Assembly: GCA_040221055.1 (NCBI GenBank)
Contig: JAVJVN010000020.1
Coordinates: 69,528-133,527, forward strand
Reading direction: 5' to 3'
DNA length: 64,000 nt
DNA from: Rhodothermales bacterium
Lineage (GTDB): Bacteria > Bacteroidota > Rhodothermia > Rhodothermales > UBA10348
Shown: one piece after another, positions 28,290-52,780 of the stretch
Layout of the letters: each line of letters starts with the position of its first letter
How positions within the stretch are numbered: position 1 is the stretch's first letter
Program-made: the position numbers and the translations under genes
The notes under the pieces: generated by a model
Seen by the model: only the letters and a program-made list of their open reading frames with translations
Database searches by the model: none
Told to the model about the DNA's origin: nothing

Positions 28290-29422
28290 TGACCGGATTT
28301 ACGGTTTCTCCGGTCACGTCCCGACGGGACCGGAAGGCGTTCATCCAATTCCCGTTCGACCTGTACCGGGAGAGCAACGTGTGGGTACCGCCGCTCCGCA
28401 TGGACGTTGCGCGACTCATCAACCCCCGGAAGAACGCCTTTTTCGGCCACGGGGACATGCAACTCTTTCTTGCCAGGGATGCCTCCGGCCGTGTAGCCGG
28501 GCGGATTGCGGCCATCCGGAATGGCATGCATCTGCAAAAATATGACGATGCCGTCGGGTTTTTCGGTTTTTTCGAGACCGTGGACGATGACGACGTGGCC
28601 GGGGCCTTGCTTGAGGCCGCAGCCGGGTGGTTGCGCAGCCAGGGACTGTCCGTCATGCGCGGGCCGGCCAATCCCACCTTGAACGACACCGCCGGTCTGC
28701 TTGTGGGTGGGTTCGACCGCCAGCCATCCATTCTCATGCCGTACAATTTCCCGTACTATGAGGCCATGCTGGCGCGTTTCGGGTTCTCCCGGTCCATGAC
28801 CATGTGGGCCTATTACAGCCACATCAAATACCTGGACGATGCCAAGTTGAACCGGGGCCGGGATCTCATCATGCGTCGCTATCCCGGCCTGAGCGCGCGT
28901 CGGCTGGACATGTCCCGTTTCGAGGAAGAAGCAGCCACCATCCTGGACATCTACAACGATGCCTGGTCCAGGAACTGGGGGCATGTCCCCATGACCGATC
29001 CCGAGTTCACGCAATTGGCCTCGGAATTGAAGCAGATCGTGGACCCGCGCCTGGTGGTCATGGTGGAAGACGAGGGTGAACCCGTCGCATTCGCCATTTC
29101 ATTGCCGGACCTGAACTATGCATTGAAGACGCTGAAGACAGGACGGTTGCTGCCGTTCGGCCTGTTCAAGTTGTTGATGCTCGCCAAGAGTGGTGTCATC
29201 CGGGAAATCCGGATGCCGCTCATGGGTGTCCGGCTTTCCCATCAGGGGCGCGGCCTGGATGCCATGCTGATTGCGGAAACCATCAACACGGGTCGGGAAA
29301 TCGGCGTACAGGGATGCGAAATGAGTTGGGTGCTGGACACGAACATGAAACTCAGAAATGCCCTGGAGGCCATGAACGGAGTGAAAGACAAGGAGTATGC
29401 CTTGTTTGATGCACCCATCTGA
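28289..29422 (+). CDS. conserved protein with a putative acyl-CoA N-acyltransferase (GNAT-like) fold; function unknown
   Basis: Its ATG shares one nucleotide with the upstream stop (TGATG). The 377-aa protein has a C-terminal segment, VRLSHQGRGLDAMLIAE, that resembles a GNAT motif A. The fold assignment is tentative. Confidence 0.5.
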   Translation: MTGFTVSPVTSRRDRKAFIQFPFDLYRESNVWVPPLRMDVARLINPRKNAFFGHGDMQLFLARDASGRVAGRIAAIRNGMHLQKYDDAVGFFGFFETVDDDDVAGALLEAAAGWLRSQGLSVMRGPANPTLNDTAGLLVGGFDRQPSILMPYNFPYYEAMLARFGFSRSMTMWAYYSHIKYLDDAKLNRGRDLIMRRYPGLSARRLDMSRFEEEAATILDIYNDAWSRNWGHVPMTDPEFTQLASELKQIVDPRLVVMVEDEGEPVAFAISLPDLNYALKTLKTGRLLPFGLFKLLMLAKSGVIREIRMPLMGVRLSHQGRGLDAMLIAETINTGREIGVQGCEMSWVLDTNMKLRNALEAMNGVKDKEYALFDAPI

Positions 29423-29426
29423 GCCC

Positions 29427-30125
29427 ATGTCCCGACCTGCATTCGTTTATTTCGACATCGACGACACCCTACTGGATCACACCCGTGCCGAGCGGCACGC
29501 GCTCAACGACGTCATTGCCGACCGGTCCGATGCATTTGACGGACTGACGCACGACGAGATCGTTTCGGCGTACCGGGAGGTGAATGCACGGGTCTGGAGC
29601 GAATATGCAGCGGGGTCCCGAAGCAAGGACCAGACGAAGTATGGCCGGTTCGAGCTCCTTCTGGACCGGCTGGGACGTGGCGGAAATGGCCTGCACGTGG
29701 AGCTCGCCGACCTGTACCTGGAACGGTACAGCGACCATTGGAGCTTTGTGGACGGGGCTGAACAGGCCTGGCAGGCGGTATCATCGACGTATCCCTGCGG
29801 TTTGTTGACGAACGGATTCTCGGAGATCCAGCGGGCGAAGCTGTCCCGCTTCCCTGTGCTGGACCGGAACGCCCGGCACATCATCATCAGCGATGAGATC
29901 GGCTGGTTGAAACCGCACCGGGCCCTGTTCGATCACGCAGCCGGAATGGCCGGCGTGCCTCCCGAAGATATCCTCTATGTTGGTGATTCGGCCCGGTCGG
30001 ACGTCGAAGGCGGACTGGGCGCCGATTGGTCCGTGGCGTGGTACCGGGGGGACGATCATGCGTCCGAACGCGTATTCTCCTTCCAGGACTACCGTGAACT
30101 GATGGACCGACTGGAAGCCTCTTGA
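29427..30125 (+). CDS. HAD-family hydrolase
   Basis: It has HAD motif I (FDIDDTLLDH), motif II (LLTNG) and motif IV (VGDSARSDVEG). Confidence 0.8.
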   Translation: MSRPAFVYFDIDDTLLDHTRAERHALNDVIADRSDAFDGLTHDEIVSAYREVNARVWSEYAAGSRSKDQTKYGRFELLLDRLGRGGNGLHVELADLYLERYSDHWSFVDGAEQAWQAVSSTYPCGLLTNGFSEIQRAKLSRFPVLDRNARHIIISDEIGWLKPHRALFDHAAGMAGVPPEDILYVGDSARSDVEGGLGADWSVAWYRGDDHASERVFSFQDYRELMDRLEAS

Positions 30126-30151
30126 GCACGGTGCACGCGCGTGACCCAAAC

Positions 30152-30184
30152 AAAAAAAGCCACCTGTCTCCAGGTGGCTTTTTT
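30152..30184. terminator. bidirectional rho-independent terminator
   Basis: The sequence is AAAAAAA-GCCACCTG-TCTC-CAGGTGGC-TTTTTT, an 8-bp GC-rich stem flanked by an A7 tract and a T6 tract. It can terminate the HAD operon on the plus strand and the candidate RNA on the minus strand. Confidence 0.85.
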
Positions 30185-30783
30185 GCGGACCCCGTCCTTT
30201 TCAGGACGATGGTTCCAAAAGTTTCCTGACGCGCGAATCTCCCCCGGTGGTCCGTTCAGCCGAAGCTGTTCAGAACAGCCGGTTACGGGAGATTCTCGTC
30301 TTATGGTTGGCATCACCACCAGGGTGATGCAATCCGCCGTACGGGCATACAACGGATTTCAGCATTCCGCGGACAACAGGATTCAGCCCGTTTGCCCACC
30401 CTTTCGGGTGCGCCACGTTACATCCGCCTGCCTGTGCCGCTCCCCTCGTCCGCTCCGAAAAGCTTCGAGGTTCGCTTGCACACGCCTTGCAAATCAATGC
30501 AAGGCCCTGCACTTCAACGGACTCTGGTTGCCGGGACGGTACCAGAACGATCCATGCAGTCTCCTGCCTGTGCAGCGCCGGAACCGGCCGAAGCCAGTCC
30601 GCCATCTTCACCAGGCCGGTACGTTACGTACCGCATCCGGAACTCCTGCAAACCTGCCTTGTGAGCGGTATTGCGATCAACACTCCGAACGAGGGGGTCC
30701 AGCTCCCGATCCGAAGATCGGGCGGTCTGCCCTCATGCAGCCTAAAGACTCAGTCGCGTCAAGGAACGGTGCCGTCAGGCACT
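30152..30783 (-). ncRNA. candidate large (~630 nt) structured non-coding RNA of unknown class
   Basis: It runs from about 7 nt downstream of a consensus promoter to the intrinsic terminator, with no credible ORF. On the minus strand there are four UUCG-capped hairpins (30705-30722, 30584-30597, 30452-30463, 30257-30268) and one GAAA-capped hairpin (30397-30410). Other hairpins lie at 30769-30782, 30617-30633, 30485-30504 and 30310-30330. A nested 9-bp helix pairs 30235-30243 with 30287-30295, and a 13-position closing helix pairs 30221-30233 with 30755-30767. Confidence 0.55.
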
Positions 30784-30789
30784 GGGACT

Positions 30790-30818
30790 ATTATAGATCG
30801 GTTTCAGAGTCAAGTCAA
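30790..30818 (-). promoter_or_regulatory. sigma70-type promoter (-35 TTGACT, 17-nt spacer, -10 TATAAT)
   Basis: The minus strand reads TTGACTTGACTctgaaaccgatcTATAAT. The -10 is at 30790-30795 and the -35 at 30813-30818 with an exactly 17-nt spacer. A second, overlapping TTGACT lies at 30808-30813. Confidence 0.6.
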
Positions 30819-30883
30819 TGCAGAATGTTCAACAAAGAGTTCACACAGTTCTCCACAGGGTTGTCCACACCCCCGGAAATGCA

Positions 30884-30911
30884 GAAAGCCCGGCCGCAAG
30901 GCCGGGCTTTC
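30884..30911 (-). terminator. GC-rich hairpin, probable terminator of the sigma/rhomboid transcript
   Basis: The sequence GAAAGCCCGGCC-GCAA-GGCCGGGCTTTC forms a 12-bp stem. On the minus strand it is followed by CUGCAUUUCC, which is only weakly U-rich. It lies about 180 nt downstream of the rhomboid stop. Confidence 0.4.
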
Positions 30912-31013
30912 CACTGCCCATAGTCACTGCGCGACTGAGTACCCCGCGAACGGGGCTTCCACCAGGCGGCATGAGATGCACCAAACGTACGAATACCTCC
31001 CGGACAATGCAAG

Positions 31014-31088
31014 TGCAATAACGGTGACATTGGCTGATCGGCCATTTTCCGTCCCAGATGCCCGTTTATTTCACCTTGCAATAACGGT
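31014..31088. repeat. 12-nt direct repeat TGCAATAACGGT, two copies
   Basis: The copies are exact, at 31014-31025 and 31077-31088, with 63 nt from start to start. They lie just 3' of the rhomboid stop codon. Confidence 0.9.
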
Positions 31089-31090
31089 TA

Positions 31091-31702
31091 TCACATGATC
31101 TGTCGAAGGAAGATCGACAAGGCGGCCGGTTCCACGAGCAACGTTGCGATGAGTCCGCCGATCGCTCCGCCCAGATGGGCCTCATGGGCAATCCCTCCCA
31201 TGTTCGGATTGTCCCGCCGGCTCATGGCATAGACCGAGAAGCCCAGGAAGCCCACCGCAAACAGCCACGCAGGAATCCAGATGGCAAAGAACAGCCCGAT
31301 CTGATCGAACGGCCGGAACAGGCAGAAGGACAACAGTACGCCCGAAATGGCCCCGGACGCACCCACGGCCGCATAGGCGTGCGAATTCCGCTGCCACCAG
31401 AGTGTCAAACCGTGGGCGGCGAATTCGGAGACGAAAAACACCACCAGGAAACCAACCGGACCCAGGAGTCGCTCCAGAGCGGGCCCGAAAAAGAACAGGG
31501 TCAGCATGTTGAAGGCCAGGTGACCCGGCCCGGCGTGCACGAATCCTGCGGACAGCAGTCGGTAGTACTCCCGGTTCTTGAGCACCTGGGCGGGCCGAAA
31601 GGACAACCGGTCCAACAATGCCGTATCGAACCAGAGGGCATATCCACTTACGAGGACATTGAGAAGGATCAGGATGATGGTCAGCGGGCTTTCAACGAAC
31701 AT
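31091..31702 (-). CDS. rhomboid-family intramembrane serine protease
   Basis: It has six TM segments, the catalytic-serine motif GASGAISGV and the histidine motif AHLGGAIGG. Confidence 0.85.
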   Translation of the reverse strand: MFVESPLTIILILLNVLVSGYALWFDTALLDRLSFRPAQVLKNREYYRLLSAGFVHAGPGHLAFNMLTLFFFGPALERLLGPVGFLVVFFVSEFAAHGLTLWWQRNSHAYAAVGASGAISGVLLSFCLFRPFDQIGLFFAIWIPAWLFAVGFLGFSVYAMSRRDNPNMGGIAHEAHLGGAIGGLIATLLVEPAALSIFLRQIM

Positions 31703-32249
31703 GGGCGTACTTCCGGGTTTTCGTCCGGTGTACGACCACCCTGGGCGCAGGATTCTCCACCGCCGATCGCACCCGCCGCGTGAACCGGCTCATGCGCATC
31801 CGGAGTGCGGAACTGCTCACCCCCGTGACCTGGCTGATTTCGGAAAAGGAACGCGACGGCGAGGCACAGCGCGCAGCCACCATCATCCGTGTGATCGTGT
31901 CCTCCTCCCGGAGCAGCCGGCGGGCGGTTCGAACGACCCGCTCGGCCTGGTCGTCAAAGGCATCGCTTGCATCCGTCACGGCATCCGCCGACGGGTCCAT
32001 GGGGAACAGGACCCCTTGCTCTGCACGCCTGCGCCTGAGCTCCCGGATGACCCGGTTCCGGGCCATGCGCCGCACGTATCGGTCGGGCGCGTGCAATCCA
32101 TCCAGTCGGGGAATGACAGCCACCATGACATCCGACGCCAGATCTTCCACATCCTGCATCCCCAGCAAACGTTCCCGCTCCGCACAGGCCCGGAAATATC
32201 GACGGGAATCGTTCCAAAGTCGTACAATGAGTTCAGTACGATTGTCCAT
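31692..32249 (-). CDS. RNA polymerase sigma factor, sigma-70/ECF-like
   Basis: Region 2-like sequence (DVEDLASDVMVAVIPRL...YVRRMARNRVIRELRR) and a region 4 HTH-like sequence (SFSEISQVTGVSSSALRMRMSRFTRRV) are present. I trimmed the start to the ATG at 32249. Its 3' end overlaps the rhomboid start by 11 nt. Confidence 0.65.
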   Translation of the reverse strand: MDNRTELIVRLWNDSRRYFRACAERERLLGMQDVEDLASDVMVAVIPRLDGLHAPDRYVRRMARNRVIRELRRRRAEQGVLFPMDPSADAVTDASDAFDDQAERVVRTARRLLREEDTITRMMVAARCASPSRSFSEISQVTGVSSSALRMRMSRFTRRVRSAVENPAPRVVVHRTKTRKYAHVR

Positions 32250-32316
32250 GACCTCGTGGCTTGACTTGCTCTTCAGGCAAAGACCCCGAACCGGACACCA
32301 CATAACGACCTCCGCC

Positions 32317-32781
32317 ATGAAAATCCTCTTCGCCACCGACCTCAAGGAGCCGACGGCCATCACCAATCGCATCCAGTCCTTCGCGGATCGTTTGGATGCG
32401 GATCTATACGTGTTGCACGTCCATGTCCCGACCCCGACGACCCCGCTGGGCATCGATCCGCTGAGTGGGTTCGGGGAGGTATCCTATGCACTGTACGATC
32501 CGTCCATCGAGGAGAGCATTGTGGAGGCCGAGCAGGGGGATTTCGATGCGTTCGTCCAGGAACGATTCACGCGACCGGTGCGGCCTGCGCTGCATCATGG
32601 CGATCCTGCACGCGTCATCCTGCACGATGCCACCGAATTGGGGGCCGATCTCATCATCCTGGCAAAGCGCCGCCACTCCGCACTGGAGCGCATGCTGCTG
32701 GGCAGTGTCACCAAAGTAGTCGCCAACGAAGCCACGCAACCCGTACTGTTGCTGCCCATTCCGGATCAGGACCGGACCTGA
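32317..32781 (+). CDS. universal stress protein (UspA family)
   Basis: It contains MKILFATDL...LHV...DLIILAKRRHSALERMLLGSVTKVV, the USP ATP-binding-type motif G-x2-G-x9-GS. Confidence 0.85.
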   Translation: MKILFATDLKEPTAITNRIQSFADRLDADLYVLHVHVPTPTTPLGIDPLSGFGEVSYALYDPSIEESIVEAEQGDFDAFVQERFTRPVRPALHHGDPARVILHDATELGADLIILAKRRHSALERMLLGSVTKVVANEATQPVLLLPIPDQDRT

Positions 32782-52707: not shown

Positions 52708-52780
52708 GGGGCTATAGCTCAGTTGGTAGAGCGCTTGAATGGCATTCAAGAGGTCAGCGGTTCGAACCCGCTTAGCTCCA
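52708..52780 (+). tRNA. tRNA-Ala (anticodon GGC)
   Basis: A 73-nt cloverleaf: acceptor GGGGCTA/TAGCTCC with the G3:U70 Ala identity pair, D-arm GCTC/GAGC, anticodon stem CTTGA/TCAAG with loop AT-GGC-AT, and T-arm AGCGG-TTCGAAC-CCGCT. The CCA end is not encoded. Confidence 0.95.

Follow-up and report, generated by a model that had tools for sequence, protein, structure and literature searches.

The window analysed here is a stretch of 64,000 nucleotides (nt) from a Rhodothermales bacterium (contig JAVJVN010000020.1 of assembly GCA_040221055.1, positions 69,528 to 133,527 of the forward strand), and coordinates count from its first letter. Its minus strand carries a two-gene RNA module on a bacterial chromosome, made up of a large structured RNA with a primary transcript of 632 nt and a partner small RNA of ~100 nt, with the large-RNA gene ~200 nt downstream of the small-RNA gene. 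We regard the module as a new RNA family, with a two-RNA organisation that fits no kind known to us. Our preferred reading, to which we give a probability of about 0.5, is that it is an RNA-operated conformational switch in which the small RNA would be a dedicated trans-acting antisense operator of the large RNA.

The sequence-only reading of the region had described a stand-alone, minus-strand structured RNA that runs from a consensus promoter to an intrinsic terminator. This description stands, as homologues keep the promoter, the 5' hairpin, the closing helix and the 3' domain, and so does the view that the RNA is neither a leader nor a riboswitch. The RNA had also been called an orphan. 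That label has to be dropped: the stretch 30825-31087, just outside the interval that had been considered, holds a small partner RNA that co-evolves with it, a pair of CCGTTATTG boxes and an array of DnaA-box-like sites.

Conserved architecture of the large RNA

The features of the large RNA are the following, with the supporting evidence in brackets.

30152-30783, minus strand: large structured RNA, primary transcript of 632 nt (promoter to terminator, fold z-score, homologues)
30790-30818, minus strand: promoter of the large RNA, TTGACT, 17-nt spacer, TATAAT (TTGAC and TATAAT kept in homologues)
30769-30782, minus strand: P1, the 5' hairpin GUGCC-UGAC-GGCAC (98% of cells paired)
30755-30767, minus strand: 5' strand of the closing helix P2, GUUCCUUGACGCG (pairs with 30233-30221; 85% of cells paired)
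30731-30758, minus strand: invariant 5' core CGCGACUGAGUCUUUAGGCUGCAUGAGG (near-invariant in ~110 loci of 46-72% GC)
30333-30356, minus strand: C' hairpin with the loop UGCCC(A/G)UA at 30347-30340, putative target of small-RNA block C (profile in 84 loci)
30296-30302, minus strand: 3' strand of P3, AAGACGA (pairs with GAGUCUU at 30751-30745)
30236-30294, minus strand: 3' domain with P4, P5 and a UUCG hairpin (covariation and RNAalifold)
30221-30233, minus strand: 3' strand of P2, CGCGUCAGGAAAC, likely the mature 3' terminus (contig ends and RNAalifold)
30152-30215, minus strand: 3' trailer, with a hairpin around CGUCCUGAAAAGGACG (30208-30193) and the intrinsic terminator (30184-30152)

Homologues of the large RNA were found in ~110 genome and metagenome loci of Rhodothermales and relatives, where they span 440-1220 nt and 46-72% GC. 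A search of related Rhodothermales had been suggested from the sequence alone, and nhmmer indeed found homologues there, with compensatory changes. Among 80 genome loci fetched via the protein of the adjacent rhomboid gene, 22 have a homologue of the interval directly downstream of that gene on the same strand, and an intrinsic terminator follows each of these homologues, 508-984 nt past the promoter match. Metagenomes were searched with a 19-base pattern of the invariant core, which retrieved 101 stretches, ~90 of them with the full core GUUCCUUGACGCGACUGAGUCUCUAGGCUGCAUGAGG. The one pattern match on a viral contig (L081) is without the flanking core and was set aside as a chance match.

Across the whole family only the ends of the RNA align, and an nhmmer search with the middle third of the window RNA returned no homologues because the middle is lineage-specific. 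As read from the alignments, the conserved core consists of the 5' 55 nt, one internal hairpin and the 3' 90 nt. The two ends meet in the long-range helices P2 and P3 and in a 3' domain made of P4 and P5, and between them they enclose the lineage-variable middle, in which one hairpin (C') is universally conserved. In a pairing test on 40 sequences with their 5' and 3' parts joined, 86.9% of cells pair in the proposed structure, against 38-49% when the partners are slid by 1-3 columns. Changes on both sides occur in 18 of the 41 pairs, and none of 500 shuffles attains the observed values. RNAalifold, given a plain MAFFT alignment of 12 full-length members (~700 nt), independently recovers P1-P5, C' and ~10 more hairpins (113 pairs, 52 with compensatory changes). 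In these alignments, the terminal hairpin, both long-range helices (the closing one and a second one) and the 3' domain are all backed by compensatory substitutions.

P1 has the compensatory variants GCGUC/GAUGC and GCGCC/GGCGC. The closing helix P2 had been predicted as a 13-position long-range pairing of GTTCCTTGACGCG (30767-30755) with CGCGTCAGGAAAC (30233-30221), which is present; its family form is GUUCCUUGACGCG with CGCGUCAGGAAC. Because the 5' strand is nearly invariant, P2 rests mainly on G-U/A-U alternation and on C-G to U-A changes in L015, L024, L026 and L139. A three-base linker separates P2 from P3, which reads GAGUCUC/GAGACUC in the family and GUCUU (30749-30745) with AAGAC (30302-30298) in the window. 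The compensatory variants of P3 are GAGUCUC/GAGACUC, GAAUCUC/GAGGUUC and GUCUU/AAGAC, and RNAalifold places the helix at columns 34-40 with 723-729. The invariant 5' core overlaps the 5' strand of P3 (30751-30745) and the hairpin that comes after P3, GGCUGC...GCAG.CC (30742-30724), which presents GCAUGAGG.

The stem of C' covaries as well. In the 3' domain, P4 pairs AAUCUCCC (30294-30287) with GGGAGAUU (30243-30236) in the window and AACCUCCC with GGGAGGUU in the family form; it is 95% paired and has A-U to G-C changes in nine sequences. A 9-bp helix, GAATCTCCC/GGGAGATTC, had been drawn in this region and was found (30295-30287 with 30243-30235). Many double changes are seen in P5 (CCGG at 30282-30279 with CCGG at 30247-30244) and in the stem of the UUCG hairpin (30268-30257). 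In the 3' trailer, the hairpin around CGUCCUGAAAAGGACG covaries between the window and its closest relative, L183.

Four UUCG hairpins and one GAAA hairpin had been listed from the window, and all are where they were said to be. The picture of a hairpin-dense interior needs a qualification, as most of these hairpins sit in the middle third, which differs between lineages. The variable hairpins of the window do covary with those of its closest relatives (L183, L184, L118 and L121); for example, CCCGAUC/GAUCGGG becomes CCCAAUC/GAUUGGG and CACCC/GGGUG becomes CAUCC/GGAUG. An 11-mer, GCACAGGCAGG, occurs twice as reported (30573-30563 and 30437-30427), but it is not kept in L183; we reject it as a functional motif, and the duplication is probably due to chance. 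The interval had also been thought less GC-rich than its flanks, which is right in direction but marginal in size (0.57-0.60 against ~0.60-0.63).

Short motifs persist in the variable middle, in the window at ~30520 (CGUCCCGGC) and at 30463-30448 (GCUUUUCGGAGCGGAC). Twelve distant members all share CGUCCCGGCG unchanged, and most of them also keep GAUGUUCGAAG and GGCAGAUGAUCCC. These motifs could be protein-binding or tertiary-contact sites. One lineage (L175:2791-3065, and L128 in its upstream region) has, in place of P1, a tandem array in which a 91-nt unit repeated three times gives nine ~30-nt UUCG-capped hairpins directly upstream of the conserved core.

The promoter TTGACT-17 nt-TATAAT (30818-30790) was found as described and matches the consensus at 11 of 12 positions; it is the sole sigma-70-like site in 29000-32000, where shuffles yield 0.7. 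The terminator (30184-30152) was likewise confirmed, and its AAAAAAGCCACCTG-GAGA-CAGGTGGCTTTTTTT is a perfect inverted repeat of 14 nt. For the minus-strand RNA of 632 nt the fold energy is -305.3 kcal/mol, compared with -247.3 +/- 8.3 in dinucleotide shuffles (z = -6.96). Its complement is almost as stable (z = -6.37), so fold energy cannot assign the strand. The minus-strand orientation proposed earlier is correct for other reasons: the promoter is conserved, there is a terminator on this strand, and transcript-like contigs with homologues are oriented the same way.

Partner small RNA

Conservation detected with nhmmer extends upstream of the large-RNA promoter. Alignment of the spacer between the rhomboid gene and the large RNA in 23 loci, window included, revealed the small RNA and its control elements.

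31079-31087, minus strand: CCGTTATTG box 1, putative regulator site upstream of the small-RNA promoter (near-invariant in the 23 loci)
31016-31024, minus strand: CCGTTATTG box 2, which abuts the -35 element of the small-RNA promoter (near-invariant in the 23 loci)
30984-31012, minus strand: small-RNA promoter, TTGCAT (31012-31007), 17-nt spacer, TACGTT (30989-30984) (conserved columns and fixed spacing in the 23 loci)
30876-30977, minus strand: partner small RNA, ~100 nt, with its own promoter and terminator (start placed from the promoter)

The two CCGTTATTG boxes lie 63 nt apart and are the sole exact copies in the window; the box is also present in a second genomic context of the module (see below). 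The small-RNA promoter has the form TTG...TAnnTT(TG), which we take to resemble the Bacteroidetes-type TTTG/TAnnTTTG, and it was not picked up by a sigma-70 consensus scan. The promoters of the two adjacent genes differ, being TTGCAT-17-TACGTT(TGG) for the small RNA and of a near-perfect TTGACA/TATAAT type for the large one, and their sequences hint at different sigma factors. Since both the promoter types and the upstream boxes differ, the small and large RNAs may be regulated separately.

The small RNA contains a CCUCAUGCCGCCUGG-type block A (30976-30962), a block B, ACUCAGUCGCG (30940-30930), and a block C, CUAUGGGCA (30923-30915), all of which are predicted to be single-stranded. Between A and B is a hairpin (30955-30942) that is retained with wholly different sequences between lineages; RNAalifold on the small-RNA alignment missed this variable hairpin. 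The terminator hairpin (30911-30884) is conserved and covaries. A match to a hidden Markov model (HMM) of the small RNA is located upstream of the large RNA on the same strand, at a median distance of 257 nt, in 75 of the 84 loci with enough flanking sequence, and only one match is without the large RNA, on a truncated contig. In members from the second context, the small RNA was seen by looser pattern matching.

Pairing between the two RNAs

The invariant 5' core of the large RNA contains B' and A', the targets of small-RNA blocks B and A. Block B is complementary to CGCGACUGAGU (B', 30758-30748), an 11-nt inverted repeat, and block A to (U)UAGGCUGCAUGAGG (A', 30745-30731). Block C is complementary to the loop of C'. 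We joined the small-RNA and large-RNA blocks of 33 distinct sequences and found helix A to be 92.0% and helix B 91.2% paired, against 29-43% when slid; none of 500 shuffles reaches the score. One position of helix A is C-G in 23 sequences, U-G in six and U-A in three, with one mismatch, and one position of helix B is C-G in 22, U-A in three and U-G in two. In L022, matching deletions are present in both the small and the large RNA.

MAFFT fails to align block C where the spacing differs, and C-C' was therefore judged case by case. Matched double changes are found in L024 (AUGAGCA in the small RNA, UGCUCAU in the loop) and in L010 (AUGGACA and UGUCCAU). In the second context, the C' hairpin was seen in none of five members checked, and block C is absent in both members with a readable small RNA (L144 and L175). 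On these sequences we regard the C-C' pairing as supported, not proven.

Cofolding of the two window RNAs gives a net -12.5 kcal/mol after P2 and P3 have been opened, compared with -3.6 +/- 2.1 for shuffled small RNAs. The duplexes formed are exactly helices A and B, arranged around the small RNA's own hairpin. These helices occupy nucleotides of P3, of the last four pairs of P2 and of the first hairpin.

Expression and processed ends

In a metagenome collection without contigs under ~1 kb, where shorter members and the small RNA are not visible, ~20 contigs have their first base either ~10 nt into P1 or precisely at GUUCC. Of these, twelve (1.07-1.24 kb) also end within the P2 3' strand or 0-2 nt past it. 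One contig, L122, follows the RNA up to this same point and is fused there to eukaryotic large-subunit (LSU) rRNA; because of this junction, the chimera must derive from cDNA. We infer from the contig ends and the chimera that the short, end-defined contigs are metatranscriptome assemblies and that the large RNA is abundant. Its mature form would have its ends paired in P2, with the terminator and sometimes also P1 trimmed off. The terminator, taken earlier as the end of the RNA, is real, but the mature molecule probably stops at the closing helix, near 30220, and the 3' trailer is probably removed.

At the other end, the starts of homologous contigs place some 5' ends of the large RNA at 30767. 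Three short contigs carry unrelated AT-rich sequence whose junction with the RNA lies at the first base of P2 or close to it; in L103 and L091 it falls precisely at GUUCC, and in L181 it is a few bases deeper in the RNA. These joins fit chimeras formed at a processed 5' end, and as such support a second 5' terminus at 30767.

DnaA-box-like sites upstream of the large-RNA promoter

30827-30869, minus strand: DnaA-box-like 9-mers TGTGGACAA, TGTGGAGAA, TGTGTGAAC and TTGTTGAAC (11-12 nt phasing)

About 9 nt separate the end of this array from the large RNA's -35 element, which lies downstream. The 64 kb contain just three sites that differ from the DnaA box TTATCCACA at a single position, and two of these are TGTGGACAA and TGTGGAGAA, 12 nt apart. 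Across 70 distinct loci, TTATNCACA with at most one mismatch occurs 10.7 times per kb in the 145 nt upstream of the promoter and 0.30 times per kb elsewhere, a 36-fold difference; the sites are at fixed offsets and often perfect, as TGTGGATAA or TTATGCACA. This pattern suggests that DnaA controls the large-RNA promoter or is titrated there.

A proposed conformational switch and competing explanations

Since blocks A and B bind the nucleotides that form P3, inner P2 and the first hairpin, the large RNA would have two mutually exclusive states, and alternative states are the simplest reading because the intramolecular and the intermolecular pairings both covary. In the first state, the core of the large RNA would be closed and self-paired. 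In the second it would be open and engaged with the small RNA in a bipartite duplex of ~26 bp, with a three-way junction around the small RNA's hairpin. The small RNA would first touch two exposed loops, that of the first hairpin and that of C', and then invade the core. Opening might switch off the abundant, end-processed RNA or expose it to nucleases, and synthesis of the large RNA would be tied to DnaA status.

Several observations weigh against a switch of this form. Helices A and B have cores that never vary in either RNA, so the evidence for them comes from complementarity and edge covariation only, and some edge positions are uncompensated (for example A opposite A in L001, L058 and L007). 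Variants of C-C' are neutral or mildly disruptive in L005, L028 and L087, and a weak 3-bp helix within the small RNA itself could also account for its changes in L024 and L010. The metatranscriptomic nature of the short contigs is read from one chimera and from the positions of contig ends, while both RNAs in this organism, and the small RNA everywhere, are known from sequence alone. The direction of regulation is conjecture: the small RNA may inhibit the large one, the large RNA may sequester the small one, or the two may form one joint machine. Similarly, opening may inactivate the large RNA, expose it to nucleases or activate it. Finally, the module is absent at the same site in Salinibacter, Salinivenus and Rubricoccaceae, and it is therefore not essential to the whole order.

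Other explanations account for part of these data. The small RNA could be a permanent structural subunit of a bipartite RNA that staples the 5' core to the C' hairpin, in the manner of two-piece RNAs or U4/U6-type complexes, with only the complex being active. The two genes are adjacent and nearly always found together, pairing through three separate blocks links remote parts of the large RNA, and blocks A and B flank an intramolecular hairpin in a Y-shaped junction, all as this arrangement would have it. However, P3 and inner P2 themselves covary and are incompatible with helix B and part of helix A, a competition not expected of a permanent subunit, and the differing promoter types and upstream boxes suggest separate control; we see here a real, if minor, chance. 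In a sponge or decoy arrangement, the small RNA would regulate mRNAs in trans and the abundant large RNA would titrate or destroy it. The very strong promoter and apparent abundance of the large RNA would suit this role, as would pairing that is extensive and covaries (helices A and B are 91-92% paired with double changes). Yet pairing sites alone would suffice for a sponge, whereas P1-P5, CGUCCCGGCG and a covarying middle of 400-1100 nt are conserved, and each of the three blocks matches a different conserved element of a single RNA, an unusual arrangement for mimicry of an mRNA target. The chance of a sponge is small. We rate as similarly slim the prospect of a two-RNA machine, a catalytic or protein-scaffolding core that is opened or closed by the small RNA and whose production is set by DnaA. 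If true, it would be an RNA-level device linking replication or cell-cycle state to a cellular process in Rhodothermales.

Two further explanations are less likely still. The DnaA-like boxes might mark an origin or a titration site, with the long and the short RNA acting like the ColE1 RNA II primer and its RNA I inhibitor. A phased array at the promoter, the presence of parA, parB and other origin-proximal genes within 5 kb, and a short RNA that pairs with the 5' part of a long one and would refold it agree with this idea. But GC skew is negative on both sides of the locus and cumulative skew falls steadily with no switch anywhere in the 64 kb, so the locus is not an origin. The genes converge on it instead of diverging, the small RNA lies upstream on the same strand and is not antisense, the large RNA comes with a terminator of its own and its processed 3' end is well defined, and there are no plasmid matches. 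We therefore reject an oriC at the locus, and hold any replication-linked RNA to be very improbable. A real plus-strand gene has next to no chance. A stop-free frame of 260 amino acids (aa) does span the entire interval (30141-30923), at the matching site of L183 an antisense hypothetical protein of 251 aa had been annotated by a gene caller (L183:4698-5453), and several homologues are wholly open on that strand. These long antisense frames are a composition artefact of an RNA rich in G and poor in U: counted over all frames, the complement has 15 stops per kb and the sense strand 29. L002, L058 and L107, the homologues of lower GC (0.51-0.52) that were examined, have at least three stops in each frame, and the frame in the interval has no Pfam match. 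A conserved open reading frame (ORF) with third-position changes would have spoken against the RNA, and the comparison came out the other way: of the substitutions that separate L183 from the window, 22, 18 and 25 affect codon positions 1, 2 and 3, the indels are of 43, 1 and 1 nt, and the changes are compensatory for RNA helices.

Comparison with known RNAs

The region 30000-31150 was searched against Rfam 15 with E-values up to 10 and returned terminator-like fragments only (best 26 bits, cut-off 55). The Rfam scan that had been suggested thus found no family in the interval. The same models detected nothing at the RNA in 12 homologous loci and 11 transcript-like contigs, and ARAGORN reported neither a tRNA nor a transfer-messenger RNA (tmRNA) in 29500-31500. 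The earlier failure to see hallmarks of RNase P, tmRNA, signal recognition particle (SRP) RNA or 6S RNA agrees with these searches. We reject membership in a known family (OLE, GOLLD, ROOL, HEARO, raiA, group I/II introns, riboswitches or known ribozymes), given that no Rfam 15 model matches. The open full-text literature, searched also for the conserved sequences as DNA and RNA text, holds no description that we could find; subscription-only papers were outside the scope of this search.

The large RNA is most reminiscent of OLE, GOLLD, ROOL, HEARO and raiA in being stand-alone, 0.5-1.2 kb long, densely structured with covariation, lineage-restricted and apparently abundant in environmental transcript data, but it matches none of their Rfam models. 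To our knowledge, none of these has a dedicated, co-evolving adjacent small RNA or an array of DnaA boxes at its promoter. Bacterial RNAs that exceed 400 nt and have a conserved ornate structure are known in very small number; most have proved to have important roles, and each of them opened work on ribozymes, RNA-protein machines or RNA cages. With over 100 homologues of widely differing GC, distinct helices, clean ends and a cultured carrier, the present family is well defined. Two traits set it apart from other large RNAs, namely a co-evolving small RNA that competes with core helices and the DnaA-box array at the promoter, and it offers a concrete hypothesis, that of one RNA switched by another. 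It is hidden in present annotations, as gene callers label the region a hypothetical protein, and an antisense hypothetical protein of ~250 aa is likely repeated in many Rhodothermales annotations.

In ColE1, and by prediction here, a ~100-nt RNA pairs with the 5' region of a ~0.6-kb RNA, hairpin loops are the likely first contacts, and pairing would alter the fold of the long RNA, judging from the overlap with P2 and P3. ColE1 RNA I is encoded antisense and is perfectly complementary to its target, whereas the small RNA described here is a separate gene upstream on the same strand, has three discontinuous blocks and carries its own promoter and terminator. Moreover, the locus is chromosomal and syntenic, with no origin signature and no plasmid matches. 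Sponges of bacterial small RNAs (SroC-GcvB, 3'ETS-leuZ and AgvB) share with the module an RNA that pairs with, and could neutralise, another one through conserved sites. Known sponges are short or are by-products without a large conserved architecture, while the putative sponge here would be the bigger, more conserved and more structured partner. U4/U6 also has two intermolecular helices that flank an intramolecular stem-loop of the smaller RNA. This likeness is topological only, U4/U6 being eukaryotic and spliceosomal with no homology to the locus. DnaA-regulated promoters and box clusters outside oriC (dnaA and nrdAB, E. coli datA and DARS, B. subtilis clusters) resemble the TTATNCACA sites in their helical phasing and in their position beside a promoter and away from the skew-defined origin. 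We know of no DnaA-regulated promoter or box cluster that controls a large noncoding RNA.

Distribution and genomic context

In the window, the genes that flank the module converge on it: a HAD hydrolase gene (29397-30125, plus strand) on one side and a rhomboid protease gene (31091-31702, minus strand) on the other. Beyond them are a sigma-70-like gene (31692-32453), which belongs to the conserved neighbourhood, and genes for DsbD, ParA, ParB and a DUF5683 protein; parA, parB and other origin-proximal genes are at most 5 kb from the locus. Gene order is nearly constant in the loci retrieved by the RNA, with DsbD, the sigma-like gene, rhomboid and the RNAs followed, in the opposite orientation, by HAD, a 377-aa unknown protein, an aminotransferase, DUF5683 and ParB. 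This chromosomal synteny is seen in dozens of genomes. The cultured carrier is Roseithermus sacchariphilus MEBiC09517 (locus L014, CP030158.1 near 192.6-193.6 kb).

A second context (L144, L153, L175 and others, with GC up to 0.72) has the module between Ddl and Psd/PssA genes. Given the two contexts, no neighbouring protein gene is common to all members. At the corresponding site of Salinibacter, Salinivenus and Rubricoccaceae, nothing of the module is present and the rhomboid gene is followed immediately by the HAD gene. BLAST against phage and plasmid collections gave no matches in either, and no association with phages or tRNA genes was seen; we accordingly reject an origin from a mobile element, phage or plasmid.

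Homologues of the rhomboid protein come from Rhodothermales, the best being 93% identical and that of Rhodocaloribacter litoris 63%. Six loci labelled Halomonas, Vreelandella or Modicisalibacter (Gammaproteobacteria; L006, L012, L013, L018, L032 and L033) have no RNA module, and their rhomboid proteins are 51-55% identical to that of the window, as near as many from Rhodothermales. They may reflect gene transfer among halophiles or mis-binned contigs. Elsewhere in the window, a tRNA gene (52708-52780, plus strand) is the sole Rfam match at the gathering threshold, with 69.4 bits.

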